Below, in pieces: positions 1,291 to 17,248 of a stretch of 17,248 nucleotides of DNA. Made by a program: the position numbers and the translations under genes. This DNA comes from a virus. Lineage: Duplodnaviria; Heunggongvirae; Uroviricota; Caudoviricetes. Position 1 is the first letter of the stretch. Each line of letters opens with the position of its first letter. The notes under the pieces were generated by a model that was not told where the DNA came from, did not search any database, and worked only from the letters and a program-made list of their open reading frames with translations. The DNA lies in the IMG/VR virus record IMGVR_UViG_2645727991_000020. One strand, given 5' to 3'.

Positions 1291-2622
1291 TTATTTTGAG
1301 TGAATTATCACCTTGTTTTTTCCGGTTCTTTTGGCTTGATATAACGCTTTATCGGCATTGACTAACATTTCAGATGGGCTGAGATTATTCTCTTTTGAAG
1401 TAAAGCAACCAATGCTGACAGTTATTTTCTCAGGTCCATGCGATAATAATTTTTCCGAGCATTGCTCTTCAATGTTTTTTCTGATTCGCTCTGCAATTGA
1501 TAGCAAGAGCTTTTGAGTATTACCTTTAATGATAATACCGAACTCCTCACCGCCTAAGCGCCCTAATACATCCTCTTTCCTGATGGATTTTTTTATTATT
1601 CTGGTAACCATTACTATGACTTGATCACCCATATGATGCCCCCATTTGTCATTGATGCTTTTGAAACTGTCAATATCTAACATTATTACTGAGAAATCAT
1701 GGTGTTTTGATATATTCTTCAATGAGTCAATAAAGTATCTTCTATTGTATGTATTCGTTAGTGGATCATGAATTGCCATATGATTAGCATGATTTAATTT
1801 CCTGAAAACATAATACATGAGTGTTGAAATGATATAAATCATTGATATCAATTCAAGAAATTTTGTCATGTACCATGCAGGATGGGATTTATCAATAAAA
1901 TACAATAAAATTAGATTATTGCATACTGACACTATACTAATAAGTATTATACACAACCATATTTTTGAGTAATTACGTATGCTGATGCATGAGCTGATAA
2001 GTAATACAAGCCAAAATACTGATATTATTTTGGTATACACGATATTCCACGTCGGCAAATGACGATTCAGCGAGTATTGTATAATATTAAGGCTATATTT
2101 TATATTGTCACTGCTTAGATTTTTTGCTACAAACGGAGTAATAAAAAGAATTAATATTGACAAAACAACAATTATTATGTTTCTTTTATCTTCTAAAACA
2201 CTTTTATTTTTAACATTGGTGGAATAAACAGCCAGAAAGATTATAGATATAAAGCTGAACTGACGGAATAGATAATATATTGCGATATCATTTGATTTCT
2301 GATAGATTGTAGATAAATCGTTACCTAACGGAGATAAAGAAATAATAGCCACTTCTAATAAATAATACGTGTTGCTCAAAAACGCGAATGAAAGAATTAA
2401 GAGATAACTTTGTCTCTGATTAGAAACATAGTAAAGCAATAGAAAAATAAAAATCATCAGGTTTATGAAAAAAAGCCCAATAATGAAAATACTATAACTT
2501 ATTTGTGTTGTTTGTGTTATGTATATTCCATTATTTTCATGCAGTAACAAAAATATAATAGAGATGCATGAAAATAAAAAGATGAAGATTTTTATTTTTA
2601 TAGGTACCTGGTTGATAATCAT
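1291..2622 (-). CDS. membrane-anchored GGDEF-domain diguanylate cyclase with a multi-pass N-terminal domain
   Basis: 443-aa ORF. The C-terminal ~170 aa carry the GGDEF signature (RLGGEEFGI) with an RxxD I-site (RKED) shortly upstream. The N-terminal ~270 aa are strongly hydrophobic, consistent with about 6-8 transmembrane helices. The gene is visibly far more AT-rich than its flanks (GC not computed), so a long open frame here is unlikely by chance. Possibly related to prophage-borne DGCs such as DgcX of enteroaggregative E. coli, but I cannot confirm that from memory. Confidence 0.85.
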   Translation of the reverse strand: MIINQVPIKIKIFIFLFSCISIIFLLLHENNGIYITQTTQISYSIFIIGLFFINLMIFIFLLLYYVSNQRQSYLLILSFAFLSNTYYLLEVAIISLSPLGNDLSTIYQKSNDIAIYYLFRQFSFISIIFLAVYSTNVKNKSVLEDKRNIIIVVLSILILFITPFVAKNLSSDNIKYSLNIIQYSLNRHLPTWNIVYTKIISVFWLVLLISSCISIRNYSKIWLCIILISIVSVCNNLILLYFIDKSHPAWYMTKFLELISMIYIISTLMYYVFRKLNHANHMAIHDPLTNTYNRRYFIDSLKNISKHHDFSVIMLDIDSFKSINDKWGHHMGDQVIVMVTRIIKKSIRKEDVLGRLGGEEFGIIIKGNTQKLLLSIAERIRKNIEEQCSEKLLSHGPEKITVSIGCFTSKENNLSPSEMLVNADKALYQAKRTGKNKVIIHSK

Positions 2623-3226: not shown

Positions 3227-6200
3227 TTAATCATCCTCTCCAATATTTAGATTGCTGATAACCTGTGCAGCTTCGTGGTCATAGCCAACCGCTAAATCTC
3301 TTAAGGTAACGGCGAATCGCTGAAAACCAGCGTTTTCCACTTCTTCTGCTTTTGCCCGGAACTGGTCAGCTAGCTCTCTCTCAGGTTTTCCTGTTGGATC
3401 AACACAATAAACACCTCGTGAGTTGTAGGCTCCTGTCATGTAGCCCCTGCGCATACTCTCAGCATCTCGATCGTTGAGAGCAGCTGCGACCTCTCGGTTT
3501 ATCCACAAGCCATTCGGATCGGAGGGAGTATAAATCAAGACTTCACCAACTTTGCTGAGTGCAACGTCCAGGTGACCTGATGCCGTAGAACCCTCCTTAA
3601 CTTTCTGAAGCCATTCAGTAAAGCGTTCTCCGTTGAACGTCCCATTTGATTGGCTTCCTGGCGGTGTCTTCCAGTTGTACAAAAGAGTCCAGGCATTTTT
3701 TGCGATTGCTTTCAATTCATCTGTTGGTTCACTTGTCATATTGTCTTCTTTGTCAGAACGATAAATGAGTTGGATTACTTCGCAGAAAAATTCTGGATCA
3801 TTAGCCATTTTATTCTCAAGGAACTTAGGCACAGCATCTTGGTGACCATCGAGCAATGGAAGGTAAGCCCACTCGATCTGAAAAAGATTATCCGGATTCA
3901 CTTTGGGATCAGTCTGAAGAAATTGGATAAGGGTAGTTATGTTGTAACCATCCATGTTGGAGCTAGATTCGTTAGTTGAAGTGGCAGCAAGCAAAGCGCG
4001 GATACACTGTTCAGTATCGATTGGCTGCTTTGTCTGATGCATCCTGCACAGGCAATTGATTGCCGCAAGTGGTCTGCCATGATCAATCAGCTTATCGATG
4101 GCACTAGTAAGATCACCTTCACCCAGGTCAGGATTTGCATCGGTGCGAGCCCAATATTCGTTCTCGGAAGCTTGAGGATAATGAGAGACTCGGGTCCAGG
4201 TCTCCTTGTTAAAAGGCAGATAAGCAAAGAATTGGCCTAACTGTTCAGGAGTCCAGTCAGCTTTATCCAGATTGTCGAACCACTCCCAGCCTTTGAGATA
4301 GAAACGCTTCCAAATAAAAGCGCTTACCAATGCCTTATACTTATTTTCTTTTGTATTGAGGAAACGGGGCAAAAGAAGTTTTTCGAACACATCATCGTTG
4401 ATAGTGCCGAGTACACTTCCTATTTGATGGGGCGCAGAAACGTGATCTGCAAATCGAATAACGCCTTCTGCGCCATCTTGCCTAAGAATTTCTGATATTG
4501 CGGATTCGCGCCTTGATTCGAGTTTATTTCTCCGTTCTTCCCAATCGCCATTTTCTAAGTAAAGATCAAAATCTCGATTTGAAAAAAGGTGCTGATATAA
4601 GTTGAATGGATTGGTAGGTGCCAGTTGCTCGGCAACATTTTCGATTTTGGTCAGCAGATCATCAGGTAAAGCCCAATTAGCATTAGAGAATCGCCGATGT
4701 TTATTTGCGAATCGATGAAGATGATCCCAAATTACAACTCGCTGCTCTTCATTAAGACAATTAATTGTTTCCGAAGAGAGGTGCTTAAGAAGATGTTCGA
4801 AAGCAGGAGATGGAAGGCTATCAAAATTATCAATCAACAAGGTAAGGCGTTCGATATCTTCTCCAGCGTTTTTGACGGCAAGCTCAGCATAAAAAGATGT
4901 CTGCAACCAGTAATCCTGATTAGTCACTTTGCTTTCCCAATCATCTGGGATTATTCGGCGCCAAGAGGGCTTGTGTGACCCAGAAGAGGTTTGATGGTGA
5001 CCGGGTAGAAGCTGGACGAGTAAATTCCAGGCAATGTCAGGCCATTCCTGCAAGATGACGTTGACTGCAACTTTTCGTTTTTCTATAGATGCCAGCGTTT
5101 GCGGAAACCACGGTAATAATATAGTAGTAAGCGAGTTAGATGGTCGATTAGCCCACTTGCCCCCAGGATCGTGGCTGGCAAGTTCGGCCAGTACAACACA
5201 GACGCGTACTAGGTATTGCTCATCCCAGGCTAATTCTTCTAGAGCCCATAGCAGTCCTGTCAGATAATTACCACCAGTGATACCATTTACTTCTTGAGAA
5301 AAAAGCTCATCAAATACACAAGGAGTCTGACGCATTGCCTTCTCAACTGCATCAAGAAATTTTGCAGGAGCTGCTTCAGCCAAAGTTGGTAGCAAACCGT
5401 TTAGGCTACCCCATAAAACCCAGTTTGCATCAGTCAAAATTGTATGTATTGCGACGTTAACGGAAGTTTCAGCATTCCCCTGAGAGCAGTTAACGCAAAC
5501 CTCTGGCCGACTCCCGATTATGGCTAAACCCTCTGCTATACCTTGTCGCAGCGTGGATGAAAACTTCAGCACCTTACCATGAATACTAGCAGCGTAACGC
5601 TCTTCAGCAGGTAATTCGAAAGCAGGGTCTGGCTCTTTGAGTACGGAAATCGCGGAAGACTTAAACAATTCAAGATTCTGATCAAAAATGCGGGATCCAA
5701 GAAGACTCCATAGCTCCATTCGATTTGTTACTTTCCAAATGCCGTTTTTTAGGGACAAAGGACTGTCTGGGCTATGTAAAATCTCTCGAGCCTTCCTTAG
5801 CCATTCGTCATAGCTGATACCAAGCAATTGGGTTAGTACATTTCGGTCACACTCATTTTTATCATTCCATTGCCCAATCAACACTGCTAAGGCTAAATAA
5901 GAGGCATCTGGGTGGTGAGTCCAGTCGGTTTTGACTACCGGTTGTACTAACCTCAACTTCTCAGGTATTTCAGCAATAACCCTTTGTTTGAAAACATCTA
6001 AAAGATCTTCAGGTAGCTTACTTGAAATGATAGTGCCAGCATCTTTATTCCAAGTTTGTACGATATCAACTATCCGCGACCAAACCCACTGAGGATACTG
6101 TTGATGGAATTGCGCTATGTGGGAGTGCAGCAAAGAAAGGACGACGCCTGATTCATTACCCAGATCGTACCCTAGTAAATGGAAATGGTTCAAAAAGTCA

Positions 6201-6775
6201 TAAAGCTCATCGTTTGTTAAATCGTTCCCACTGTTTGCCATCTTCAGATGAAACTGGATGGTCTCCAGTTTCTCAGTACTTTTAGGCGGGCTGAACTTGG
6301 CTTTTTGAACGTTCCTCAAAAATTCATCGACTGTTTTTGTGTGTCTAGCCTGATTCAATAACCAGAGCACATTGTGTGTATCGGTCGAACTGAGCGGACC
6401 GGTGATCAGTGCAATAACATCCTTGTTCTTGGTAAACAAGTCAGGATTGTTGAAATCGTTCCAAGCAGCCTGTATAACTTCCCCAAGTATCGCATTACCT
6501 TGCGTAAATGAAATAGAATGCTTTATTTGTCCTAATAGCTTCCGTTTTTCATTTCTGTTGAAATCTTTAACAACGACGATCAAGTCGTCGGTATCAAAAC
6601 CATCAATCTTGCCCTGGAGATTTATCTCCACTATGGGCCAACAAGGAAGACAAGGTGCATTACCGCCTGTTAGCATTAGAGCAACAAAAGACGCTTGGAC
6701 ATGTGCTTCAAAATGAACACCGCCTCCGCCTGTAGAAAAAGGATTACTCAAATTTTTTTTATTTGTCATTAACAA
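3227..6775 (-). CDS. large hypothetical protein (~1,180 aa), function unknown; candidate phage-defence or effector cargo
   Basis: Uninterrupted 3.5-kb ORF. The track start at 6775 is TTG; the first ATG is at 6769 (MTNKKNLSNPF...). Stop TAA at 3227-3229. I found no Walker A GxxxxGK[ST] and no other catalytic signature I can name. The N-terminus has a Gly-rich loop (STGGGGVHFEAH), a CxxC (CLPC) and an acidic-hydrophobic strand (GFDTDDLIVVVKD); a second CxxC (CVNC) lies near residue 430; the remainder is Trp/Leu-rich and probably helical. Product is unassigned. Confidence 0.85.
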   Translation of the reverse strand: MLMTNKKNLSNPFSTGGGGVHFEAHVQASFVALMLTGGNAPCLPCWPIVEINLQGKIDGFDTDDLIVVVKDFNRNEKRKLLGQIKHSISFTQGNAILGEVIQAAWNDFNNPDLFTKNKDVIALITGPLSSTDTHNVLWLLNQARHTKTVDEFLRNVQKAKFSPPKSTEKLETIQFHLKMANSGNDLTNDELYDFLNHFHLLGYDLGNESGVVLSLLHSHIAQFHQQYPQWVWSRIVDIVQTWNKDAGTIISSKLPEDLLDVFKQRVIAEIPEKLRLVQPVVKTDWTHHPDASYLALAVLIGQWNDKNECDRNVLTQLLGISYDEWLRKAREILHSPDSPLSLKNGIWKVTNRMELWSLLGSRIFDQNLELFKSSAISVLKEPDPAFELPAEERYAASIHGKVLKFSSTLRQGIAEGLAIIGSRPEVCVNCSQGNAETSVNVAIHTILTDANWVLWGSLNGLLPTLAEAAPAKFLDAVEKAMRQTPCVFDELFSQEVNGITGGNYLTGLLWALEELAWDEQYLVRVCVVLAELASHDPGGKWANRPSNSLTTILLPWFPQTLASIEKRKVAVNVILQEWPDIAWNLLVQLLPGHHQTSSGSHKPSWRRIIPDDWESKVTNQDYWLQTSFYAELAVKNAGEDIERLTLLIDNFDSLPSPAFEHLLKHLSSETINCLNEEQRVVIWDHLHRFANKHRRFSNANWALPDDLLTKIENVAEQLAPTNPFNLYQHLFSNRDFDLYLENGDWEERRNKLESRRESAISEILRQDGAEGVIRFADHVSAPHQIGSVLGTINDDVFEKLLLPRFLNTKENKYKALVSAFIWKRFYLKGWEWFDNLDKADWTPEQLGQFFAYLPFNKETWTRVSHYPQASENEYWARTDANPDLGEGDLTSAIDKLIDHGRPLAAINCLCRMHQTKQPIDTEQCIRALLAATSTNESSSNMDGYNITTLIQFLQTDPKVNPDNLFQIEWAYLPLLDGHQDAVPKFLENKMANDPEFFCEVIQLIYRSDKEDNMTSEPTDELKAIAKNAWTLLYNWKTPPGSQSNGTFNGERFTEWLQKVKEGSTASGHLDVALSKVGEVLIYTPSDPNGLWINREVAAALNDRDAESMRRGYMTGAYNSRGVYCVDPTGKPERELADQFRAKAEEVENAGFQRFAVTLRDLAVGYDHEAAQVISNLNIGEDD

Positions 6776-6914
6776 TCACATCCACATTTTGATTACGAAT
6801 AGATGAAAAAGAAGAGCACTCATACTTCAGAACTTATTCCACCTATATCTTTTAAAGACACTGTTATGCCTAGCATTTACGTAGATTAGCTAGCTCTCGG
6901 GTAATGACTCCAAC

Positions 6915-7418
6915 TTACTGATAGTGTTTTATGTTCAGATAATGCCCGATGACCTTGTCATGCAACTCCACCGATTTTGAGAACGACAGTGACTTCCGTC
7001 CCAGCCTTGCCAGATGTTGTCTCAGATTCAGATTATGTCGCTCAATGCGCTGCGTATATCGCTTGCTGATAACGTGCAGCTTTCCCTTCAGGCGTGATTC
7101 ATACAGCGGCCAGCCATCCGTCATCCATACCACGACCTCAAAGGCCGACAGCAGGCTCAGAAGACGCTCCAGTGTGGCCAGAGTGCGTTCACCGAAGACG
7201 TGCGCCACAACCGTCCTCCGTATCCTGTCATACGCGTAAAACAGCCAGCGCTGACGTGATTTAGCACCGACGTAGCCCCACTGTTCGTCCATTTCAGCGC
7301 AGACAATCACATCACTGCCCGGTTGTATGCGCGAGGTTACCGACTGCGGCCTGAGTTTTTTAAGTGACGTAAAACCGTGTTGAGGCCAACGCCCATAATG
7401 CGTGCACTGGCGCGACAT
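6915..7418 (-). CDS. insB: IS1 transposase InsB (expressed natively as an InsAB' frameshift fusion)
   Basis: 167-aa product ...[58 protein letters not shown]... matches IS1 InsB with a few substitutions. It overlaps the 3' end of insA as expected for programmed -1 frameshifting. Confidence 0.9.
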
Positions 7419-7612
7419 CCGACGCCATTCATGGCCATATCAATGATTTTCTGGTGCGTACCGGGCTGAGAGGCGGTGTAAGTGAACTGTAGTTGCCATG
7501 TTTTACGGCAATGAGAGCAGAGATAGCGCTGATGTCCGGCAGTGCTTTTGCCGTTACGCACCACGCCTTCAGTAGCGGAGCAGGAAGGACATCTGATGGA
7601 AATGGAAGCCAC
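7337..7612 (-). CDS. insA: IS1 protein InsA (zinc-finger DNA-binding regulator)
   Basis: 91-aa product [68 protein letters not shown]... matches IS1 InsA. Confidence 0.9.
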
Positions 7613-7667
7613 GCAAGCACCTTAAAATCACCATCATACACTAAATCAGTAAGTTGGCAGCATTACC

Positions 7668-9283
7668 AAATCATCAATAACGAAAGCTGGTTATGTTCTC
7701 CGTTAAGCGTTATCGGTACTGGCAGAGACGATAAAGACCAGTATCTCATTCTTCGCTGGCTGTCGTTTGGTTCTGAAACGCCGACAACCGCTGCCATTCC
7801 ACTGGCTGATATTGGTGAACGTGAAGGATGGCGCACACTTAAAGCTGGTGGGGTAAATGTCACGACCAAAAGCAGCCTCAGAGCAATACTGGCAGACTGG
7901 CTACAACGCAGTGGCTCTCGTGAATTGTGGCGTGTTGCTCATGCCACTGGCTGGCAATGCGGAGCGTACATCATGCCTGATGGGGAAATCATCGGAACAC
8001 CTGAAAATCCTGTGCTGTTCAGCGGGAGAAGCTCAGCCGCAGCCGGATATACCGTCTCAGGGAGCGCGAAAAGCTGGCGTGATAACGTGGCGCGTCTGGC
8101 CTTTGGTAACTATTCAATGATGACCGGGATCGGCGCAGCACTGGCAGCGCCATTGATTGGGCTGGTGGGCGCTGACGGGTTCGGCATTCATTTCTATGAG
8201 CAGTCGAGCGCAGGTAAGACCACCACGGCAAACGTGGCGAGCAGCTTATACGGCAACCCTGATTTACTGCGGCTGACGTGGTACGGAACCGCGCTGGGGC
8301 TGGCAAATGAGGCCGCCGCCCACAATGACGGACTAATGCCGCTTGATGAAGTTGGTCAGGGCGCTGATCCTGTCAGCGTTTCACAGTCTGCCTATGCGTT
8401 ATTTAACGGTGTAGGGAAACTGCAAGGCGCTAAAGATGGTGGAAACCGGGATCTAAAACGCTGGCGTACAGTGGCAATCAGCACCGGAGAAATGGATTTA
8501 GAAACATTTATCGCTACTTCCGGGCGAAAAACCAAAGCCGGGCAACTGGTGCGACTGCTGAATATTCCGTTGAGTAAAGCAGTACGCTTTCACGATTACC
8601 AGAACGGAAAACAGCACGCAGACGCACTGAAAGACGCTTACCAGCATCACCACGGCGCAGCCGGGCGTGAGTGGATTAAATGGCTGGCAGACCACCAGCA
8701 ACAGGCTATTAAAACCGTTCGTGATTGCGAAAGCAGATGGAGAAACCTGATCCCATCCGATTATGGTGAGCAGGTTCACCGTGTAGCCGCGCGATTTGCC
8801 ATTCTGGAGGCCGCATTGCTGTTAGGCGAGGTTGTAACAGGCTGGGATGCTCAGACATGCCGTGATGCGATACAGCACAGCTATAACGCATGGTTGCGCG
8901 AGTTCGGCACAGGTAACAAAGAACATCAGCAGATTATTGAACAAACGGAGGCATTTCTTAATGCCTATGGGCTTAGCCGTTTTGCACCATTTCCATACAG
9001 CCCGGCAGATTTGCCCATCAAAGATTTAGCCGGATACCGTCAGCGTGGAGAACATGACGAAAGCCCAATGATTTTCTACACATTCCCGGCCACATTTGAA
9101 AAGGAGATCGCATGTGGTTTCAACGCAAAACAGTTTGCTGAAGTGTTGAAAAAAGCCGGGATGCTAACCCCACCAAACAGCGGTCGTGGATACCAAAGAA
9201 AATCACCACGTATTCAGGGACGACAAATAAACGTTTATGTACTCAATTACCAGCCAGGAGATTATAACTCATCTGAAGAATGA
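7668..9283 (+). CDS. P-loop NTPase replication protein of mobile-element type (tentatively DUF927 family), 5'-truncated by IS1; probable pseudogene
   Basis: The track ORF 7493..9283 begins inside IS1. Native sequence starts at the IS1 boundary (7668) with no in-frame ATG until 7973 (IMPDGEIIG), yet the intervening 100 codons read as genuine protein. Walker A-like YEQSSAGKTTT and Walker B-like GLMPLDEVGQ are present. The gene ends about 20 bp before iteron cluster A. Confidence 0.6.
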
Positions 9284-9301
9284 GCTTCTTCATGTGCGTA
9301 G

Positions 9302-9422
9302 AAAAGGTGTTGGTTCAGTTGGTTCAGTTGGTTCAATTTATAAAGGGTATTGTTTTATAAGGATTTTATTCTTTTTATTGAACCAACACTGAACCAACAA
9401 CACGGTATTTTGAACCAACACA
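9302..9422. repeat. iteron cluster A (origin-like)
   Basis: Three tandem 9-bp repeats ttggttcag / ttggttcag / ttggttcaa (about 9310-9336), an AT-rich spacer of roughly 40 bp, then three inverted copies tgaaccaaca (9379-9420). Confidence 0.7.
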
Positions 9423-9469
9423 ATGTGACTGAATTGATGCGCACAACACCTGGCTGGCATCAGAGAGTG

Positions 9470-9546
9470 TTTTACGAGACTTTCGTAAAATCCTGTGTAC
9501 AAGGGCGTGACGTTTTTGAAAGTGAGCACTACGAAATTTTCGTAGT
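9470..9546. promoter_or_regulatory. pair of TACGA-N5-TCGTA palindromes (candidate operator sites)
   Basis: ttttacgaGACTTtcgtaaaa (9470-9490) and actacgaaATTTtcgtagt (9528-9546) share identical half-sites TACGA / TCGTA with 5-bp spacers, centres about 57 bp apart. Confidence 0.4.
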
Positions 9547-9737
9547 TCAAAAAACAGCCTCTGAGAAGTTGTTATGCCTGTTCAGCAAACCATCCGCATA
9601 GCTGATCGCGAATCAAATTACCAATGGAGCCAGAAGCAAGGGCAGAACTGAAAAGCGCCTGCCGTGAAGAGTAATGCGACACCATAAATATAGTTTTTAG
9701 AGTCCATAAAAAACCTGTCAAAACCTGACACACAGAA

Positions 9738-9773
9738 CGACGCCACCAGCTACTGAGCGGTGGCATTTTTTTG
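9738..9773 (+). terminator. putative rho-independent terminator (plus strand)
   Basis: GC-rich stem gccacc (9742-9747) / ggtggc (9759-9764) followed by a run of seven T (9766-9772). It sits between the iteron/operator region and the downstream operon. Confidence 0.45.
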
Positions 9774-9867
9774 TGCTATTTGTTTCATATTCTGCAATTA
9801 CGATGATGAATATTGCGATTTGTGAAACTATAATAACTGTTGTTTTATACAGTTATAAGGGGGCGTT

Positions 9868-10029
9868 ATGGCTATTTCAGTAAAGCCGGTATTGATAAGT
9901 GAGAAGCAAATGGAAGCGATAAAGAAAATTCAGGAAGAGCAGCGTAAAAAATCAGGAATTGGAGTAGCGCCAACTCTGCATGAAATTGCACGAGGGTTAA
10001 TAGATAAGGCGCTGGCAGGCTGTATGTGA
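9868..10029 (+). CDS. small hypothetical protein (53 aa), possibly a ribbon-helix-helix-like DNA-binding protein
   Basis: Not in the supplied track (below its length cut-off). ATG at 9868 with a strong Shine-Dalgarno AAGGGGG 6 nt upstream; product MAISVKPVLISEKQMEAIKKIQEEQRKKSGIGVAPTLHEIARGLIDKALAGCM; TGA at 10027-10029. It sits 16 bp upstream of the four-gene operon. The RHH assignment is a guess from the strand-then-helix pattern. Confidence 0.45.
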   Translation: MAISVKPVLISEKQMEAIKKIQEEQRKKSGIGVAPTLHEIARGLIDKALAGCM

Positions 10030-10045
10030 AAATGGATGGCATCGC

Positions 10046-10507
10046 ATGGAACTAAAATTTATTGATAACCCTGTGCGATTACAGGCCTTTCTTAACGAGC
10101 CAGGCAATACCGAAAATATTGTTGAGCCGGGGCACACGTACTACATCAAGCCTGATGCGGTATATCTCGGCATCTACGAAGGATTAGTGCTGGCTGGCGT
10201 TCATGAAGTGCGTAACTTCTGGCATAGCGTTGTTGAATGCCATGCGGTGTACGACCCCGGATTCCGTGGTGAATATGCACTGCAAGGGCATCGATTATTC
10301 TGCAAATGGCTTCTCGAAAACTCACCATTCCTTAACAGCATCACTATGGTTCCTGACACCACGAAATATGGACGGGCAATTATCCGTTTGCTTGGCGCTA
10401 CCCGTGTTGGTCACCTTGATGATGCTTATATCAGATGTGGTAAACCCGTCGGCGTAACGCTTTATCAGTTAACTCGGCAACAATATAAGGAATTCAGCGA
10501 ATGTTAA
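10046..10507 (+). CDS. hypothetical protein (153 aa), first gene of a translationally coupled operon
   Basis: ATG at 10046; its stop (TAA 10505-10507) overlaps the next start (ATGTTAA). No motif recognised. Confidence 0.7.
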   Translation: MELKFIDNPVRLQAFLNEPGNTENIVEPGHTYYIKPDAVYLGIYEGLVLAGVHEVRNFWHSVVECHAVYDPGFRGEYALQGHRLFCKWLLENSPFLNSITMVPDTTKYGRAIIRLLGATRVGHLDDAYIRCGKPVGVTLYQLTRQQYKEFSEC

Positions 10508-11178
10508 TTACCCATATAGCTCATAAACATCTCAATCGTGCCGTATACGAAAAAGGCGGTGATGGTGGTGCCTCTAAAGCTCAGGCGAAGGCCCAGCAGC
10601 AGGCAATTGATTTGCAGCGCGAGCAGTGGAATACGGTGATGAATAATCTCAAGCCGTATGCAGAAGTCGGATTGCCTGCTTTACAACAACTGCAAGGACT
10701 GATGACTCTGGAAGGGCAGAATAAAGCCGCGAATGATTTCTTTGGTTCTGGTTTATATAAAACACAGGCAGATCAGGCCCGTTATCAGAACCTTGTCTCA
10801 GCAGAAGCTACCGGGGGGCTTGGCTCAACAGCTACCAGTAACCAGTTATCTTCCATTGCGCCCATGCTTTATAACAATTGGCTCAGTGGGCAAATGCAAA
10901 ATTATGGAAACCTGCTAAATGTCGGGATGAATGCGGCATCAGGGCAGGCAACAGCAGGGCAAAACTACGCCAATAATACCGGGCAACTCTTGCAGGGGCT
11001 TGGCGCTATTCGTGCAGGTCAGGCGCAGCAGCCATCCAGTCTTGCGCGTGGTATTGGTGGGGCGGCATCAGGCGCTTTAGCGGGTGCGCAACTTGGTTCC
11101 GTTGTTCCGGGTATAGGTAATGTCGCCGGGGCTATTGGTGGTGGGCTTATTGGTCTTGTTGGGGGGCTTGGATTCTAA
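10501..11178 (+). CDS. hypothetical protein (225 aa) with Gly-rich hydrophobic C-terminus; possible virion ejection/injection protein (P22 gp7-like by size and position)
   Basis: Start overlaps the upstream stop; C-terminus GIGGAASGALAGAQLGSVVPGIGNVAGAIGGGLIGLVGGLGF is membrane-active-like; Gln/Ala-rich low-complexity middle. The homology call is inference only. Confidence 0.7.
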   Translation: MLITHIAHKHLNRAVYEKGGDGGASKAQAKAQQQAIDLQREQWNTVMNNLKPYAEVGLPALQQLQGLMTLEGQNKAANDFFGSGLYKTQADQARYQNLVSAEATGGLGSTATSNQLSSIAPMLYNNWLSGQMQNYGNLLNVGMNAASGQATAGQNYANNTGQLLQGLGAIRAGQAQQPSSLARGIGGAASGALAGAQLGSVVPGIGNVAGAIGGGLIGLVGGLGF

Positions 11179-12599
11179 TGGCGACATGGCAACTTGGCGG
11201 GCTGCCTAGCATGGCACCGCAAAATGATAATGCTCCTCGTTCTTCCGTTCCTCAGCCTGTGCAGTATCAGCAGCACCCAAACGTAGGTTTAATGGCGCTA
11301 CAGGGGCTAAGAGGCGTTGCTGAGATTAATCAGCAGGCACGTCAACAACAGCGTAAAGCAGAGTTTCAGAAAGCATATGCCGGGGCTTTTGAGTCTGGAG
11401 ACAGAAACAAAATGCGCAGTCTTATTTCTGAGTATCCAGAAGAATTTGAAAGCGTTCAGAAAGGGATGGGCTTTATTGATGACGACCAGAGAAATTCTAT
11501 TGGTCATCTTGCGACTAGTGCTCAAATCGCATCTTCGCTCGGAACTGGGGCATTTGGAAAATTCATAGCAGATAACGAAGATGAAATGCGTCGCTTGGGA
11601 ATTTCTCCTGAGTCTGTTGCCGAAATGCATGTTAATGATCCACAGGGATTCCAGCGGCTTGCTGGTAGTATGGCACTGTTTTCTCTCGGTCATGAGAAGT
11701 ATTTCGATATCAAAGATCAAATGGAAGGTCGGGATATTGAGCGTGGCAAGTTGGCAGAGACAATCCGCAGCAATCAGGCTGGCGAAGCACTTCAGGCGAG
11801 AGGGCAGGATATTAGCCGAGCAAATGCGTTAACGTCAGCATATGCACCAACAGCAGCAATGCAGAATTACAATCAGTACGCTCAAATGTTAAAGGCGGAT
11901 CCAGAGGGGGCGGCGGCATTTGCGGCAGCGGCTGGAATTAATACAAACGCCAAAAAATTAATGAGTGTTAGAGAAAACGATGATGGCACTGTCACAAAAT
12001 ACTACACAGACGGAAGTGAAGAGCAGGGAAAACTAAACCAGCCAATATCTGGAGATGGGTTTCGTCCAATAGCTTTGCCAACAGCCCAAAAGATCATGGA
12101 AAAGTCGCCAGAAGGGGCTAAAAAAGCTGCTGGATTTGCATACAGGGTTAGGGATGCTCTTGATTCAATAGATACACTGAAAGACCAGCTTAGCCCACAG
12201 CGAGTGGCGATCATTAATAATGCTTTGGGTAATGGGACGCTGGCTAACTTAACGCTCAGCCCAACAGAGCAGCAATACGTTGTTAATGCTAATGACGCAA
12301 TAATGGCAATACTCCGTCAGGAAACAGGGGCAGCTATCGCACCTGCTGAAATGTCAAAATATTATCAAATGTATTTCCCTCAGCCTGGCGACTCCACAAA
12401 AACCATTGATACCAAGCGCCGGAAGATGGAAAACCAGTTCAATTCGCTGAAAGCTGCTTCTGGTCGAGCTTATGATGCTTTGCGGGTTATTTCAGCAGTT
12501 GACAGAGGAACTTCTTCTTCGTCGCAGACATTGCCGCAATCTGAGCAGGTATCACAGCCAGCAGCCAGCAGTAACTTTTCTTCACTATGGGGTGATTAA
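11178..12599 (+). CDS. hypothetical protein (473 aa); possible virion ejection protein (P22 gp20-like by size and position)
   Basis: TAATG overlap with the upstream gene; hydrophilic, Ala/Gln/Glu-rich. The size matches my recollection of gp20 at about 471 aa. Inference only. Confidence 0.7.
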   Translation: MATWQLGGLPSMAPQNDNAPRSSVPQPVQYQQHPNVGLMALQGLRGVAEINQQARQQQRKAEFQKAYAGAFESGDRNKMRSLISEYPEEFESVQKGMGFIDDDQRNSIGHLATSAQIASSLGTGAFGKFIADNEDEMRRLGISPESVAEMHVNDPQGFQRLAGSMALFSLGHEKYFDIKDQMEGRDIERGKLAETIRSNQAGEALQARGQDISRANALTSAYAPTAAMQNYNQYAQMLKADPEGAAAFAAAAGINTNAKKLMSVRENDDGTVTKYYTDGSEEQGKLNQPISGDGFRPIALPTAQKIMEKSPEGAKKAAGFAYRVRDALDSIDTLKDQLSPQRVAIINNALGNGTLANLTLSPTEQQYVVNANDAIMAILRQETGAAIAPAEMSKYYQMYFPQPGDSTKTIDTKRRKMENQFNSLKAASGRAYDALRVISAVDRGTSSSSQTLPQSEQVSQPAASSNFSSLWGD

Positions 12600-14704
12600 T
12601 GGCTAAAGCATGGAAAGATGTTATCGCCTCTCCACAGTATCAGGCGTTAGCACCAGAACAAAAAGCGCAGGCTCAGGAGCAATACTTCAATGAAGTCGTT
12701 GCCCCGCAAGCCGGAGAAAGTGTAGAGCAGGCTAAGCAGGCTTTTTATGCTGCCTATCCACTACCATCAACGAATGAAATAGACCGATCCCAATCAGCAA
12801 CTCAAAATATTCAACATACATCATCTGATAATTCTCTTGCGTCAGGGTATGCAAAGTTAGCTACTCAGCAAAGAGAGGGGCTTGAGCGTTCAGCAGAACA
12901 GGGAGCCAGTCTTGGGGCTGCGATGCGCGATGCTATAACAGGCGAAAGCCGAATGACTCCAGAGATGGAGAGACTGCAAAATGTCACCTCTGCCCCAGAA
13001 TTGAACTCACTAAGCATGGATGCCCTAAAGGCTGGATGGTCTCAACTTTTCGGCTCTGACGCGTCTCAGGAAAAGATTCTTCAGGGAATGGGGGCGACAT
13101 TAAGGCAGGATGAGAAGGGGAATACTATCGTTTCTCTGCCATCAGGTGATTATGCCCTGAACAAGCCGGGTTTATCACCGCAAGACCTGACTTCGTTTCT
13201 TGCTAATGCGTTGGCGTTTACACCAGTGGGCAGGGCTGGAACGGTGCTTGGTGCCATAGGAAAATCAGCAGCTACAGATTTAGCACTACAGGGAGCCACC
13301 AGCCTTGCTGGTGGAGAAGATATTGATCCGTTACAAACGGTAATTTCTGCTGGCATTGGTGGTATTGGTAAGGGGCTGGAAAATACAGCGAGTGCGGTTT
13401 CGAGGGCTGTTCGTGGTGATATGTCGCCTGAAGCAAAGGCTGCTGTCGACTTTGCATCGGAAAGAAATCTGCCGTTAATGACCAGTGACATGCTGAAAGA
13501 TAAAACCTTTATGCAGAGTCAGGCTCAGACATTAGGCGAAAGAGTTCCTTTTTTTGGAACCGGTAAGAATCGGCTGAATCAACAACAAGCACGAGAAAAT
13601 TTAGTCAGAACATTTAGCGATGGTCTGGGTGGCATTTCTGATAAACAGCTTTATGAATCTGCGACTAAAGGGCAACAAAAATTCATTGAGGCAGCAGGAA
13701 AGCGATATAACCGCATAATTGACGCTATGGGGGATACCCCTGTCGATCTCTCAAACACGGTAAAAGCTATCGACAATCAGATTGCCGTGTTAAGCCGCCC
13801 GGGCAAATCTCAGGATAGAGCCGCGGTAAAAGTCTTGCAGCAATTTAAAGACGATATCACCAGCGGACCAAATGACCTGCGTCTGGCGAGGGAAAACAGA
13901 ACCGATCTTCGAAAGCGATTTATGGCGTCATCTGACACTGTTGATAAAGATACGCTCCAGAAAGCCAGCGATATTATCTACAAGGCATATACGGCGGATA
14001 TGAAAAAAGCCGTAGCCAAAAATCTTGGAGCAGACGAAGCCATTAATATGGCAAGGGTTGATCGCTCATGGTCTAAATTCAATGATATGATGGGAAGAAC
14101 GCGCGTTCAAAAGGCAATAGCCAGCGGCAAGGCCACGCCTGAGGATGTAACAAAACTCGTTTTTAGCCAAAGCCCATCAGAACGTTCTCAGCTTTACAGG
14201 CTTCTGGATGACAATGGTAGGCAAAACGCACGAGCAGCCATAGTTCAGAATGCTGTAGATAAGGCGACTGATCCGTCTGGAAATATCAGTGTTGAGAAGT
14301 TTATTAATGCGTTACACCGGAACAGGAAGCAATCAGCAACTTTCTTTAAAGGCGTACATGGAAAGGAACTGGACGGCGTTATTAAATACCTCAACGATAC
14401 AAGACACGCGGCAAAAGCGAACGTTCAAAACTTAAATGGTCAGCAGCTTTATGGATTGTTAGTTGGTGGTGGCATCATAAACGCAGCAGTATTAGCGGGG
14501 ATGCTAAAAACGGCTGCGTTTGTTGTTCCTGCTGCTGGTGCCGTAGGCGGAGCAGCGAAGGCATACGAAAGCCCTGTTATACGAAATGCCTTGTTACGTC
14601 TGGCAAATACGCCAAAAGGTAGCACAGCATATGACAGAGCGATCAGTACGGTCACACAATCGCTCACCAGAGTCGCACAGGCATCACAAAAAGAAGCTCA
14701 ATAA
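12599..14704 (+). CDS. hypothetical protein (701 aa) with C-terminal hydrophobic segment; possible virion ejection protein (P22 gp16-like by position)
   Basis: TAATG overlap with the upstream gene; a hydrophobic stretch LYGLLVGGGIINAAVLAGMLKTAAFVVPAAGAVGGAA lies near the C-terminus; stop TAA at 14702-14704 is followed by a hairpin and T-run. Confidence 0.7.
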   Translation: MAKAWKDVIASPQYQALAPEQKAQAQEQYFNEVVAPQAGESVEQAKQAFYAAYPLPSTNEIDRSQSATQNIQHTSSDNSLASGYAKLATQQREGLERSAEQGASLGAAMRDAITGESRMTPEMERLQNVTSAPELNSLSMDALKAGWSQLFGSDASQEKILQGMGATLRQDEKGNTIVSLPSGDYALNKPGLSPQDLTSFLANALAFTPVGRAGTVLGAIGKSAATDLALQGATSLAGGEDIDPLQTVISAGIGGIGKGLENTASAVSRAVRGDMSPEAKAAVDFASERNLPLMTSDMLKDKTFMQSQAQTLGERVPFFGTGKNRLNQQQARENLVRTFSDGLGGISDKQLYESATKGQQKFIEAAGKRYNRIIDAMGDTPVDLSNTVKAIDNQIAVLSRPGKSQDRAAVKVLQQFKDDITSGPNDLRLARENRTDLRKRFMASSDTVDKDTLQKASDIIYKAYTADMKKAVAKNLGADEAINMARVDRSWSKFNDMMGRTRVQKAIASGKATPEDVTKLVFSQSPSERSQLYRLLDDNGRQNARAAIVQNAVDKATDPSGNISVEKFINALHRNRKQSATFFKGVHGKELDGVIKYLNDTRHAAKANVQNLNGQQLYGLLVGGGIINAAVLAGMLKTAAFVVPAAGAVGGAAKAYESPVIRNALLRLANTPKGSTAYDRAISTVTQSLTRVAQASQKEAQ

Positions 14705-14708
14705 CTGG

Positions 14709-14731
14709 TTAGCCATGGATGGCTAATTTTT
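14709..14731. terminator. putative terminator shared by the convergent operon and membrane-protein gene
   Basis: Palindrome ttagccat-gg-atggctaa (14709-14726) followed by TTTTT (14727-14731), directly after the stop of the 701-aa gene and overlapping the stop of the minus-strand gene. Confidence 0.4.
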
Positions 14732-15142
14732 GTTCTTTGCTCTCATCCATAGGTAAAGAAGGGAAAGAACAAGACAAAAAACAGAGAATAGATAACCTAC
14801 CTCATATGGTGCGCCAAAAAAATTAGCTATTGATACGGGCAAAAAAGCTGAGGCGATCAAAATTGAAAGGCAAAAAATAAGCCCAGTAATATAGTTTATT
14901 AAATTCTTAAATGAGAAACGTTTTGCTTGATTTACGGTCTTAACGAACGATCGCTTAACGACGGATAAAAGCAAATAGATGGCGACAGTTGCTAATGCCC
15001 CTTTCCACCAGTCTGGATATAGTTTTGCGACAATCAGACCAAGGAAAACCATGATGACAGCCTGAGCATTCACACCAACCCTCCCTTTAGCTTTGTTTAG
15101 AATGGCAATCATCATATATCCAAGACATGGCATTTGGTACAT
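14723..15142 (-). CDS. small integral membrane protein (about 115-139 aa); candidate superinfection-exclusion-type moron
   Basis: Three to four hydrophobic helices (VIMVFLGLIVAKL, ATVAIYLLLSVV, ITGLIFCLSILIASAFL, LFSVFCLVLSLLYLW). The likelier start is an in-frame GTG at 15073, preceded by AGGGAGG, rather than the track ATG at 15142. Convergent with the operon. Confidence 0.6.
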   Translation of the reverse strand: MYQMPCLGYMMIAILNKAKGRVGVNAQAVIMVFLGLIVAKLYPDWWKGALATVAIYLLLSVVKRSFVKTVNQAKRFSFKNLINYITGLIFCLSILIASAFLPVSIANFFGAPYEVGYLFSVFCLVLSLLYLWMRAKNKN

Positions 15143-16106
15143 AGCTTGGGTCGGGATTTCAAATCCGATCCCCGTTGATGGGGCCGTTACAGTACGCGCA
15201 TATCCGCTTTATGTGAAACAGGAAGATTTTTCTGATATCACTGCCACAGCAAAACACCAATTTCGAGACAAGTACGCGCGCGAGGGGTATCAGTTGCAAA
15301 AAATTTTGCAACTACGTCCGACCAGTATGCACACGATGGCGGAGGGATACCATAAAACTGTTCTCTACATGAGACAGAGTGGTGGTGATGTGTTGATTAT
15401 CGGCGTATATGCGCACAGGACGCGCTATGACGATGTTTTATGCGGGTACACCAATCACATGTATCTGGTGTGATAAATCGCGTTACATGACCTCTCATGT
15501 TGTACTGGTGGTTATCACGACGTTCTGAATCTGGCCTTTGCCTGGTATTTTGCGACAAGTACGCGCGCGTAGCATCGAAATAATCGGATGGCGTATGCTG
15601 CTGGTAATATGAAGACCGATAGCATTAACCGTAAGGAGAAAGACTTCTCGATAACGGCAAGGGGGCTGAATTGCGAGGCGAGATTAAGCAACTGTCTTGA
15701 ACGTAAAAATCATGGAGCAACATGATGGTACGATTCATTCCATTCTTCGTTCTTTCTGAGCATTGCGTTCAGGCTTAGTCAAAATTAGTGTTGCGAGCGG
15801 ACCTATTAGTAATTGTTGGTGCGATGCGTCTGTTATGGATTGTTATGGTTGTGGCAGGCCTGATTAATATCCAGTATGACCACCAGCTATGAGAGGCCAC
15901 CTCAGTGGTTCGCAGTTGCAGGTTTGCACTCAGGTTCGCAGGGTTTTGGCTACTTTCACGTGCGAACCTGCAGAATTGCAAAGGACAACTAAGTCCTCTG
16001 GCCAACTCCCGGTTTATGAGCGACACAGTCCGCCTGGCGCATCGTTTTCGTCGAGTGCGCCCATCAGCTTGTCCATGGACTATCCACCACTCGATATTAA
16101 AGCTAA

Positions 16107-16292
16107 TCATTGGTTGCCAGCCCGCGAATCAAGTTTGTTCTGGATCCAAGCTTCAACCTCCTCAAGCGACCATCTAGCTGATCTACCAATTTTAACTGGC
16201 TGTGGAAACGTGCCCGTCTTAACCCATGAGTAGATTGCCGTTTTCTTGAAGCCCGTTCTGAGCATGACTTCGCTTAATTTGATAAGGCGCAT
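16107..16292 (-). CDS. alpA: AlpA-family phage regulatory protein (MerR-like DNA-binding / excisionase-type)
   Basis: 61-aa product MRLIKLSEVMLRTGFKKTAIYSWVKTGTFPQPVKIGRSARWSLEEVEAWIQNKL has the AlpA helix-turn-helix signature. A strong SD (GAGGAG) lies upstream of the ATG at 16292. Confidence 0.85.
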   Translation of the reverse strand: MRLIKLSEVMLRTGFKKTAIYSWVKTGTFPQPVKIGRSARWSLEEVEAWIQNKLDSRAGNQ

Positions 16293-16341
16293 AGAGGCTC
16301 CTCTGCTTTAGATTAAGCATAGTGACAATCTGGCTTTGGGT

Positions 16342-16376
16342 GGTATCCAAAAGCGAGGTATCCATGTTGGTATCCA
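16342..16376. promoter_or_regulatory. three direct GGTATCCA repeats in the alpA upstream / divergent promoter region
   Basis: GGTATCCA at 16342-16349, 16357-16364 and 16369-16376 (spacing 15 and 12 bp), 50-85 bp upstream of the alpA start. A second direct pair TTCACGCA lies near 16455-16475. Confidence 0.35.
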
Positions 16377-16543
16377 CCAAAACGCTGTTTACCAAAAAGT
16401 TACCACCGGAACAGGACATTTTGAGCTGTAACTTAACACATAGCATATGGAGTTCACGCATAGACTTCACGCACAACGGCTCTGGCCAGTGAAGAATCAC
16501 CCTGGCTAGCAATATAATGCCGATCACCATCAGAGGGGAATCC

Positions 16544-16735
16544 ATGACACCACGAGAAATCGAGCTGCTGACCATTGCCAAGCTGGAGCATGGCGGCCAC
16601 CAGCTCAGCCCGGCAGAACTGCGGGAATTAAGGCGCCAGCTGGCAGAGGGCCCTGTAATAGCCAGGCGGTACCGCGAAATGATGACCAGCCCCGCATATC
16701 GCTGGAGCAAACCAGCGCCGCTCCGTGCGCGGTGA
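16544..16735 (+). CDS. small hypothetical protein (63 aa), divergent from alpA
   Basis: ATG at 16544 with SD AGAGGGG upstream and a TATAAT-like hexamer at 16513-16518; product MTPREIELLTIAKLEHGGHQLSPAELRELRRQLAEGPVIARRYREMMTSPAYRWSKPAPLRAR. The track start at 16517 is an in-frame upstream ATG without an SD. No family recognised. Confidence 0.45.
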   Translation: MTPREIELLTIAKLEHGGHQLSPAELRELRRQLAEGPVIARRYREMMTSPAYRWSKPAPLRAR

Positions 16736-16807
16736 GCAGCACCTAACCAGCACTAGACAAGCCCTGTGCTGGTGGATGTCCCTCATAATTAGCGGTTTTT
16801 AAACGGC

Positions 16808-16936
16808 GTGTTGGTTCACGGCCTCTTTTTGTTGGTTCAAAAATGGGGTGTGTTGGTTCACTTTTTGCGAATAATTCTTTTAAAAACAATACTCTTTACA
16901 AATTGAACCAACTGAACCAACTGAACCAACACCTTT
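16808..16936. repeat. iteron cluster B (origin-like), inverted relative to cluster A
   Basis: Three loosely spaced ttggttca copies (16811-16858), an AT-rich spacer, then three tandem 9-bp tgaaccaac repeats (about 16904-16930). The reverse complement of 16901-16938 is identical to 9302-9339 over about 38 bp, with further similarity beyond. Confidence 0.7.
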
Positions 16937-16966
16937 TTGCTTATCTATATAATCTGAGAGGCAGAA

Positions 16967-17248
16967 ATGATAAGGGACAGGAAAGCTGAAGAGCTGGAGT
17001 CAAAAGGGCTATACCGGAGAGCTGCCGCACGATGGATGGAAGTCATGCTGTTATGCACCGAGGACGATGATCGGGAATGGATAAAGCGCCGCCGTGAAAC
17101 GTGTCTGGAGAACGTGAAGCGCCCGCCCGTGAAGGTTGAGGAATTTGGCGACCTGCATAAAGCTGTTACCGAAACGCAACACCGCATGGGGATAGCGCAA
17201 CCGAACGGTAACGCCTTCCGGTTAAATGGCGGCAAGAGGCAAAGGTAG
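16967..17248 (+). CDS. probable PerC-family transcriptional regulator (93 aa)
   Basis: Product MIRDRKAEELESKGLYRRAAARWMEVM... fits the N-terminal pattern I associate with PerC/Pch regulators (AEELE.KG..RRAA.RW). SD GAGAGG and a TATAAT lie just upstream; the stop TAG is the last three bases of the window. Family call from memory only. Confidence 0.5.
   Translation: MIRDRKAEELESKGLYRRAAARWMEVMLLCTEDDDREWIKRRRETCLENVKRPPVKVEEFGDLHKAVTETQHRMGIAQPNGNAFRLNGGKRQR

Follow-up and report, generated by a model that had tools for sequence, protein, structure and literature searches.

A P22-type ejection-protein gene cassette carried by an EcCIMP1-type phage satellite

The window analysed here, a viral stretch of DNA of 17,248 nucleotides in its whole length (IMG/VR record IMGVR_UViG_2645727991_000020), carries at 10046–14704 a cassette of four genes resembling the ejection-protein (E-protein) genes 14, 7, 20 and 16 of phage P22. 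We interpret the cassette as the ejection-protein module of a phage-inducible chromosomal island (PICI) of the EcCIMP1 type, a satellite of P22-like podoviruses, which probably specifies the entry machinery of the particles; the mechanism is inferred. The initial annotation had described a gp14-gp7-gp20-gp16-like cassette here, and had offered a prophage remnant or co-option by a satellite-like element or exclusion system as its origin. The four genes are the following:

10046–10507, plus strand: gp14-like protein (DUF2824), 153 aa; Pfam DUF2824 1.5e-61, PHROG 651 1e-66
10501–11178, plus strand: gp7-like ejection protein, 225 aa; Pfam P22_gp7 1.9e-72
11178–12599, plus strand: gp20-like ejection protein, 473 aa; Pfam Inj_translocase 3.9e-58, PHROG 917 2.5e-112
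12599–14704, plus strand: gp16-like ejection protein, 701 aa; PHROG 770 "DNA transfer protein" 2.5e-163

The list of open reading frames (ORFs) and the junction sequences agree with the annotated sizes and start/stop overlaps: at GAATGTTAATT (ATGTTAA), TAATG and TAATG, every start overlaps the stop before it. The Gly-rich hydrophobic C-terminus claimed for the second protein is present (...GIGGAASGALAGAQLGSVVPGIGNVAGAIGGGLIGLVGGLGF), though it is not scored as a transmembrane segment by a 19-residue Kyte-Doolittle window with a threshold of 1.6, and the hydrophobic segment claimed near the C-terminus of the fourth is a single one at residues 617–635. The DUF2824, P22_gp7 and Inj_translocase scores all exceed the Pfam gathering cut-offs; because of the Pfam and PHROG matches, the four ORFs are to be regarded as real genes and not as chance ORFs.

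Comparison with P22 by BLASTP points the same way as the profile searches. The gp14-like protein is 23% identical to P22 gp14 over most of the protein (2e-8; "head morphogenesis" is the name of gp14 in the P22 record), the gp7-like protein is 56% identical to gp7 (5e-54) in an alignment that begins at the mature N-terminus left by OpdA cleavage, the gp20-like protein is 38% identical to gp20 in its N-terminal half only (6e-45), and the gp16-like protein is 30% identical to gp16 over 478 residues (5e-53). The best phage match of the gp16-like protein is in coliphage N7 (66% identity) and that of the gp20-like protein in the APSE phages (53%); at the nucleotide level, P22-like coliphages reach 86–96% identity in short patches only. 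The P22 record gives gene 14 (151 aa), 7 (229), 20 (471) and 16 (609), much as the initial annotation had given them, followed by sieA on the opposite strand. The cassette keeps the P22 order 14-7-20-16, tightly packed on the same strand, and by these alignments its genes are true homologues of the P22 genes, gene by gene and in order. The likeness extends to gene sizes, tight coupling and a membrane-protein gene convergent on gene 16 in both. Unlike in P22, however, no needle (26), gp10, gp4, coat or portal gene lies ahead of the cassette; it stands instead behind a small gene, orf53, and a satellite promoter, and its sequences are distant from those of P22 (23–56% identity).

An uninterrupted copy of the region is found in Escherichia coli XJW9B263 (locus L001), where the cassette lies inside an island of about 20 kb. 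The order in this island is integrase, DUF6387, an AlpA-type helix-turn-helix gene, AntA/B, DUF4222, Ash, small ORFs and a TOPRIM/DUF927 primase, then orf53, gp14, gp7, gp20, gp16, a gene for a membrane protein on the minus strand, a further AlpA-like gene and PerC; genes for head, portal, tail or lysis functions are lacking. It is thus the second suggestion of the initial annotation, co-option by a satellite-like element, that the intact copies bear out. An integrase and an AlpA master regulator are present in four intact relatives (L001, L005, L006 and L087), and in intact relatives the cassette occupies a fixed slot after the primase, the origin iterons and orf53. The window had also been said to hold no head, portal or tail genes near the cassette. 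This stands for its satellite part, but a tail-fibre fragment and a tail-fibre assembly gene are encoded at 52–1217; these lie beyond an IS1 junction and are part of a different element.

The island belongs to a family that has already been described. EcCIMP1, the PICI of E. coli MP1 (Pick, Stadel & Raivio, ISME J 2025; PMC11773190), is 19,963 bp long, is integrated at tRNA-Thr between proA and yagU, and undergoes excision, circularisation and transduction only with the temperate phage vB_EcoP_Kapi1 present (PMC11773190); Kapi1 is a Lederbergvirus, that is, P22-like. Its authors coloured the cassette genes as "DNA transfer", reported DUF2824 or "DNA transfer protein" similarity for EcCIMP1_017–019 and proposed a packaging role without testing it (PMC11773190). 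The genes appear in that paper as "DNA transfer/DUF2824 hypothetical proteins" and were not identified as a full 14-7-20-16 set; their role was left open, and neither the packaging nor the superinfection phenotype of the island could be explained (PMC11773190). The window is 98.9% identical in nucleotide sequence to EcCIMP1 of MP1 (L087; blastn) over 7668–11338 and 15148–17248. It shares with EcCIMP1, whose helper is a P22-like podovirus, the attachment (att) region, primase, origin, orf53, alpA_1 and PerC-like genes; gp14 is 98% and gp7 99.6% identical between the two. The remainder of the cassette is exchanged:

11339–15147: block replacing the EcCIMP1 (MP1) counterpart, comprising most of gp20, all of gp16 and the downstream gene (blastn against the MP1 locus)
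gp20 allele: 439 aa in EcCIMP1 (MP1), 473 aa in the window
gp16 allele: 906 aa with a lytic transglycosylase (SLT) domain in EcCIMP1, 701 aa without it in the window
Gene downstream of gp16: 232-aa ORF in EcCIMP1, orf139 with four predicted transmembrane (TM) segments in the window

This block has no nucleotide similarity to the MP1 locus and amounts to a clean allelic replacement, with its left boundary about 160 nt inside gp20. Judged by these alignments, the element is a truncated member of the published EcCIMP1 family with swapped gp20 and gp16 alleles.

The cassette is kept in satellites. The window sequence is that of E. coli, and no complete E. coli genome in the collection accounts for more than 58% of it at a single place. 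Of 5426 complete E. coli genomes, 181 cover at least 80% of the cassette, and E. coli satellites carry it at two att sites, thrW and yicC-dinD. The yicC-dinD island of MS1657 (L006) has the four-gene set with EcCIMP1-type alleles; those of ISHS7 (L005, 13821–17392) and CS5L (L085, 7618–11159) have only gp20 and gp16, directly after orf53, and the CS5L gp16 is 98% identical to that of the window, its gp20 only 44%. We also examined 77 species-representative loci encoding relatives of the primase (L008–L084), among which an island of Leclercia adecarboxylata (L037) has the full four-gene set. In the cargo slot of Pectobacterium sp. B1J-3 (L038, 15130–19407) a single 1425-aa ORF matches both gp20-type and gp16-type families (phrog_2534 at residues 373–518 and phrog_770 at residues 783–1422, respectively) and appears to be a fused ejection protein. 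The ratio of nonsynonymous to synonymous substitution rates (dN/dS) is 0.155–0.32 among E. coli satellite copies, and when the satellites of E. coli MS1657 and Leclercia are compared, gp20 has a value of 0.066 and gp16 one of 0.083, at a dS of about 1: the satellite-borne copies are under purifying selection.

These observations bear on the other origin that the initial annotation had suggested, a decaying and functionless remnant of a P22-like prophage lying beside satellite genes. The neighbourhood in the window is indeed degraded, with an IS1 at 6900–7667, a truncated primase and prophage tail-fibre debris at 52–1217, and of the 20 best E. coli matches, 3 have the region interrupted by an insertion sequence. 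In intact islands, however, the cassette is always found in the same slot with the same promoter and orf53; none of the four ORFs is disrupted, dN/dS is 0.07–0.3, including between genera, and no needle, portal or coat genes stand alongside the cassette in any satellite copy. The P22 portal, coat, terminase, gp10 and gp26 likewise have no tblastn match in the satellite loci, and none is found in the annotations of L001, L005, L006, L085 and L087. Synteny and selection thus contradict a prophage remnant, which we regard as extremely improbable; the window copy is an IS1-truncated satellite and not a decayed prophage. Exchange with phages is a different matter. The gp16 of the window is 90% identical in amino acid sequence to that of a complete P22-like prophage (L086), whose gene set includes portal, coat, gp4, gp10, needle, 14, 7, 20, 16 and tailspike; from this allele it follows that satellites and real P22-like prophages exchange cassette alleles, and the swapped block at 11339–15147 is a further sign of such exchange.

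The truncation of the window copy can be located precisely:

6900–7667, minus strand: IS1, 768 bp; Pfam DDE_Tnp_IS1 1.3e-74; terminal inverted repeats read from the sequence
7668–9283, plus strand: C-terminal remnant (about residues 381–918) of the TOPRIM/DUF927 primase-helicase; Pfam DUF927 9.3e-47, PHROG 1139 DNA primase 2.8e-139

Because the 9-mers flanking the IS1 differ (TAGCTCTCG and AAATCATCA), the IS1 site is a rearrangement or deletion junction and not a simple insertion. It joins the satellite remnant to unrelated prophage debris, and similarity to the intact islands begins exactly at 7668, adjoining the IS1. From there the primase remnant is 99.9% identical to the intact E. coli XJW9B263 island from 18369 onward; the gene of that island has 918 codons, of which the window keeps the C-terminal 538, and the truncated primase is presumably non-functional. 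The integrase, master alpA, AntA/B, Ash and primase residues 1–380 are all missing from the window, lost at the IS1 junction, and helper-dependent transfer of this truncated copy is not to be expected. On the other side of the IS1, a MASE4-GGDEF diguanylate cyclase gene of low GC content (28–31%) at 1291–2622 (minus strand) adjoins the tail-fibre and tail-fibre-assembly genes; a 1182-aa ORF at 3227–6775 (minus strand) matches only PHROG 18693 (unknown function), with no match in Pfam, NCBIfam or PADLOC.

The relation to the helper is graded along the cassette. Against Kapi1, gp14 is 84% identical for the window (Kapi1_055) and 83% for EcCIMP1, gp7 is 57% identical for both (residues 1–206 in the window), and gp20 is 34% identical for the window, over the N-terminal ~200 residues only, and 26% for EcCIMP1; for gp16, similarity is not detectable for the window and is 24% for EcCIMP1. 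In P22, the E-proteins enter the procapsid via their N-terminal parts with the help of the scaffolding protein, and residues 21–154 of gp7 and 1–314 of gp20 suffice for incorporation into procapsids (PMC8402733). The satellite proteins therefore seem to resemble those of the helper where loading is specified and to differ where the channel is built, a pattern that is weakly suggestive of loading into helper particles.

A further candidate link to P22-type helpers lies elsewhere in the island. In all E. coli EcCIMP1-like islands that were examined, the ash gene contains or adjoins an antisense stretch of about 107 nt that is 86–93% identical to nt 4–110 of P22 (in the small-terminase gene) and starts exactly at the annotated pac site:

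pac-like stretch: L001 14346–14452; L005 7862–7968; L006 8289–8395; L085 1908–2009; L087 25954–26060; L008 7119–7220

The stretch, a candidate pac mimic, is absent from Kapi1, whose terminase type differs, and from the window, in which this region is deleted. A mimic of P22 type, unmentioned in the EcCIMP1 paper (PMC11773190), may explain the poor transduction by Kapi1. It also bears on the suggestion of the EcCIMP1 authors that the cassette is a packaging module redirecting helper DNA packaging to the satellite. The cassette does sit where other Gram-negative PICIs carry packaging genes (PMC11773190). However, neither assembly nor packaging requires the P22 homologues, which are essential only for DNA delivery (PMC4992974), Pfam and PHROG searches found no terminase or capsid-redirection homology in the cassette proteins, and the separate pac-like sequence could itself account for packaging; a packaging role thus appears very unlikely.

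The reading we prefer, that the cassette specifies entry machinery, can be put as a sequence of steps. On helper induction, the satellite would transcribe orf53-gp14-gp7-gp20-gp16 from an activator-dependent, possibly LexA-gated promoter, and the products would be co-assembled into helper procapsids. At the next infection, the satellite E-proteins would build the trans-envelope DNA channel in the recipient, so that the satellite would determine the entry specificity of its carrier particles. The likeliest pay-off would be access to cells in which a resident P22-like prophage keeps out E-proteins of the helper's own type, as helper lysogens would be the best recipients for the satellite and are exactly the cells that would express exclusion functions; alternatively, it might gain entry into strains where the helper's E-protein type works poorly.

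Several points weigh against this proposal. E-proteins enter procapsids before the DNA does, and helper particles would therefore receive them too, so that the satellite would not be alone in benefiting. Satellites with gp20 and gp16 alone exist (ISHS7 and CS5L), and in these gp14 and gp7 are dispensable. The N-terminal conservation is weak evidence, because it is the general mosaic pattern among P22-like phages, and the pay-off from evading exclusion is conjecture. Transduction of EcCIMP1 by Kapi1 is very low, at about 4.8e3 per ml, and a Kapi1-like prophage is present in only 2 of 21 EcCIMP1 strains (PMC11773190). Whatever the cassette does in intact elements, the window copy, given what it has lost, is stranded: it should be unable to excise, replicate or be mobilised.

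The same divergence from the helper could be turned to a different end. In a strategy of anti-phage interference, the E-proteins would act as poison or decoy subunits in procapsids of infecting P22-like phages, or would displace DNA from the headful capsid, lowering the infectivity of helper progeny and leaving the small satellite genome unaffected. The satellite gp20 and gp16 are very unlike those of the helper, and the region downstream of pri in PICIs is an accessory and immunity hotspot that holds the Tai tail-assembly inhibitors (PMC11364771). The Tai proteins share this neighbourhood with the cassette and are likewise concerned with helper virion proteins, but they are small inhibitors (PMC11364771), are not homologues of virion proteins and have no sequence relationship to the cassette. 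Moreover, EcCIMP1 neither lowers Kapi1 titres after induction nor affects Kapi1 infection of non-lysogens (PMC11773190), and the cassette proteins are full length, with a gp16 that shares 90% identity with its counterpart in an apparently complete prophage, which suggests an ordinary function and not a poison variant. The gp16-like protein, orf139 and orf53 had no match in PADLOC (the gp14-, gp7- and gp20-like proteins were not scanned), the sole hit being a weak MAD1-type helix-turn-helix match of alpA_1. Interference is therefore, in our judgement, unlikely.

The features around the cassette concern its control and the island in which it is embedded. The initial annotation had placed it between iterons and an AlpA-family gene, and both are found:

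9302–9423: origin-type cluster of iterons, oppositely oriented GTTGGTTCA repeats flanking an AT-rich core; families D3, I1–I6
9749–9772, plus strand: intrinsic-terminator-like hairpin and T-run between the primase/origin region and the cassette operon
9795–9866, plus strand: cargo-operon promoter region by inferred function; two TTTCAT..TGCAA-type repeats, -10 TATAAT at 9829–9834, no good -35
9868–10029, plus strand: orf53, small conserved first gene of the operon; in 31 related islands a homologue follows the primase, irrespective of cargo
14707–14736, plus strand: terminator-like hairpin directly after the gp16 stop codon
14723–15142, minus strand: orf139, four predicted TM segments; convergent on gp16, same position and orientation as sieA in P22
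16107–16292, minus strand: alpA_1, second AlpA/excisionase-like gene of the island; Pfam Phage_AlpA 1.9e-13
16808–16937: second cluster of iterons, repeating the first in inverted orientation (65 nt, 91% complementarity) just upstream of the PerC-like gene
16967–17248, plus strand: PerC/ANR-like regulator gene; Pfam PerC 3.7e-30, NCBIfam ANR_neg_reg 1.6e-7; ORF listed to the last base of the window

The two inverted iteron clusters bracket a 7.4-kb segment from orf53 to alpA_1, and do so likewise in L001, L005, L006, L085 and MP1. A role of alpA_1 in excision of the helper Kapi1 has been described (PMC11773190). An alignment of the 130 nt upstream of orf53 homologues in 32 islands shows the promoter architecture to be kept whatever the cargo: two TTTCAT..TGCAA-type repeats in the place of the -35, then TATAAT, then CTGTAT. 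In the window a LexA-box-like palindrome, CTGT-N8-ACAG, lies at 9837–9852 and is the only such site; the full palindrome at the promoter is common to several relatives, and others have a half-site only. This architecture suggests activator dependence and gating by the SOS response. No similarity to a helper late promoter or to qut was found upstream of the cassette (blastn of 9284–10046 against P22, Kapi1 and the complete prophage L086). The orf53 product has no match in Pfam, NCBIfam or PADLOC; a ribbon-helix-helix regulator was considered from the sequence pattern, found no support in these databases and is left as a guess.

Operon I of the staphylococcal islands (SaPIs; Staphylococcus aureus pathogenicity islands), attributed to Ubeda et al. 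2007, is reportedly a LexA-controlled packaging operon with small terminase and capsid-size genes. Like the cassette operon, it forms a separate unit by which a satellite exploits its helper and has an SOS-box-like site in the promoter, but its cargo differs, and LexA control of the cassette is suggested by a sequence motif only.

The position of orf139 raises an alternative in which the island acts in its resident state, with the cassette proteins or orf139 in the envelope of the carrier cell blocking the entry of P22-like DNA. EcCIMP1, in which no known defence system was detected, strengthens immunity to superinfection by Kapi1 (PMC11773190); orf139, with its four predicted TM segments, sits exactly at the sieA position of P22, and different membrane or secreted proteins take this spot in other satellites and prophages. 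The published effect, however, was seen in Kapi1 lysogens only and not in non-lysogens (PMC11773190), and EcCIMP1 has a 232-aa gene in place of orf139, so that the phenotype is not assignable to orf139. Nor does orf139 have similarity to SieA, and a cassette promoter without a -35, placed after a terminator, argues against constitutive expression. Superinfection exclusion by the resident island might hold for orf139 without explaining the four E-protein genes, and as an account of the cassette we consider it doubtful, at about the level of interference. An identification of orf139 as a SieA homologue was rejected (BLASTP against P22 SieA, E 0.95); it has no homologue in 50,697 phage records and no match in Pfam, PHROG, NCBIfam or PADLOC. 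At the same spot, unrelated membrane or secreted proteins are encoded by CS5L (L085; 204 aa with 4 TM segments), the prophage L086 (109 aa with 3 TM segments) and ISHS7 (L005; 132 aa with a hydrophobic, signal-peptide-like N-terminus).

The slot behind orf53 is not reserved for P22-type genes. We classified its contents in the 58 loci that have a close primase and sufficient sequence downstream:

Lone full-length tape-measure protein: 12 of 58 loci
SLT-domain or internal-virion protein sets of other podoviruses: 9 of 58
SLT "lytic tail protein": 4 of 58
Baseplate hub: 3 of 58
P22-type cassette: 3 of 58
Like capsid-forming PICIs (cf-PICIs): 6 of 58
Unclassified: 21 of 58
Example cargo-slot coordinates: L026 14293–18042; L011 9654–12983; L019 17927–22256; L044 14755–21648; L009 14295–16082; L024 15377–16417

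The tape-measure protein of Chimaeribacter (L026) shares 59% identity along its full length with its counterpart in Erwinia phage Midgardsormr38, and has an integrase, regulators and the primase as neighbours and no other tail genes. An 849-aa protein of Leclercia EMC7 matches podovirus virion structural and internal virion proteins. A conserved ORF of about 108 aa precedes the satellite tape-measure genes; its identification as a tail-assembly chaperone was dropped, as the ORF shows no resemblance to the genes that precede the tape-measure gene of Midgardsormr38.

The cf-PICIs, to which the six loci with the same primase family belong in type, are likewise satellites that encode part of their own virion. 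Their own genes supply capsid, portal, terminase and connectors, and the helper contributes only tails, whereas the element of the window has none of these and encodes only proteins that exit the capsid and form the DNA channel. In SatelliteFinder, tail profiles are forbidden components, and islands of the present kind would therefore have been filtered from surveys. We found no satellites encoding ejection, injection, internal virion or tape-measure proteins in the literature beyond EcCIMP1, within an incomplete coverage of that literature. It is conceivable, though we would put it at somewhat less than even, that a large Enterobacterales PICI lineage, defined by this primase, orf53 and cargo promoter, carries helper-type genome-delivery proteins and little other virion material; these may be P22-type ejection proteins, internal-virion or SLT proteins of other podoviruses, full-length siphovirus tape-measure proteins or baseplate hubs.

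The element family was thus already known. What is added here is the exact identity of the genes, their selection in satellites, their swapping with phage alleles, a candidate pac mimic, and comparative evidence of delivery proteins of other phage types in the same slot; the proposals are directly testable in the published MP1/Kapi1 system. Known satellites redirect packaging, resize capsids or build their own, and a satellite supplying ejection machinery would act at entry into the next cell and not at assembly in the current one. If the proposals are true, such satellites would not be capsid remodellers but would exchange the component of the particle responsible for opening the recipient envelope, the step targeted by the superinfection-exclusion proteins of prophages, and might in this way gain entry into helper lysogens or new hosts. 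Should the pattern hold across the slot, it would represent a new hijacking strategy.

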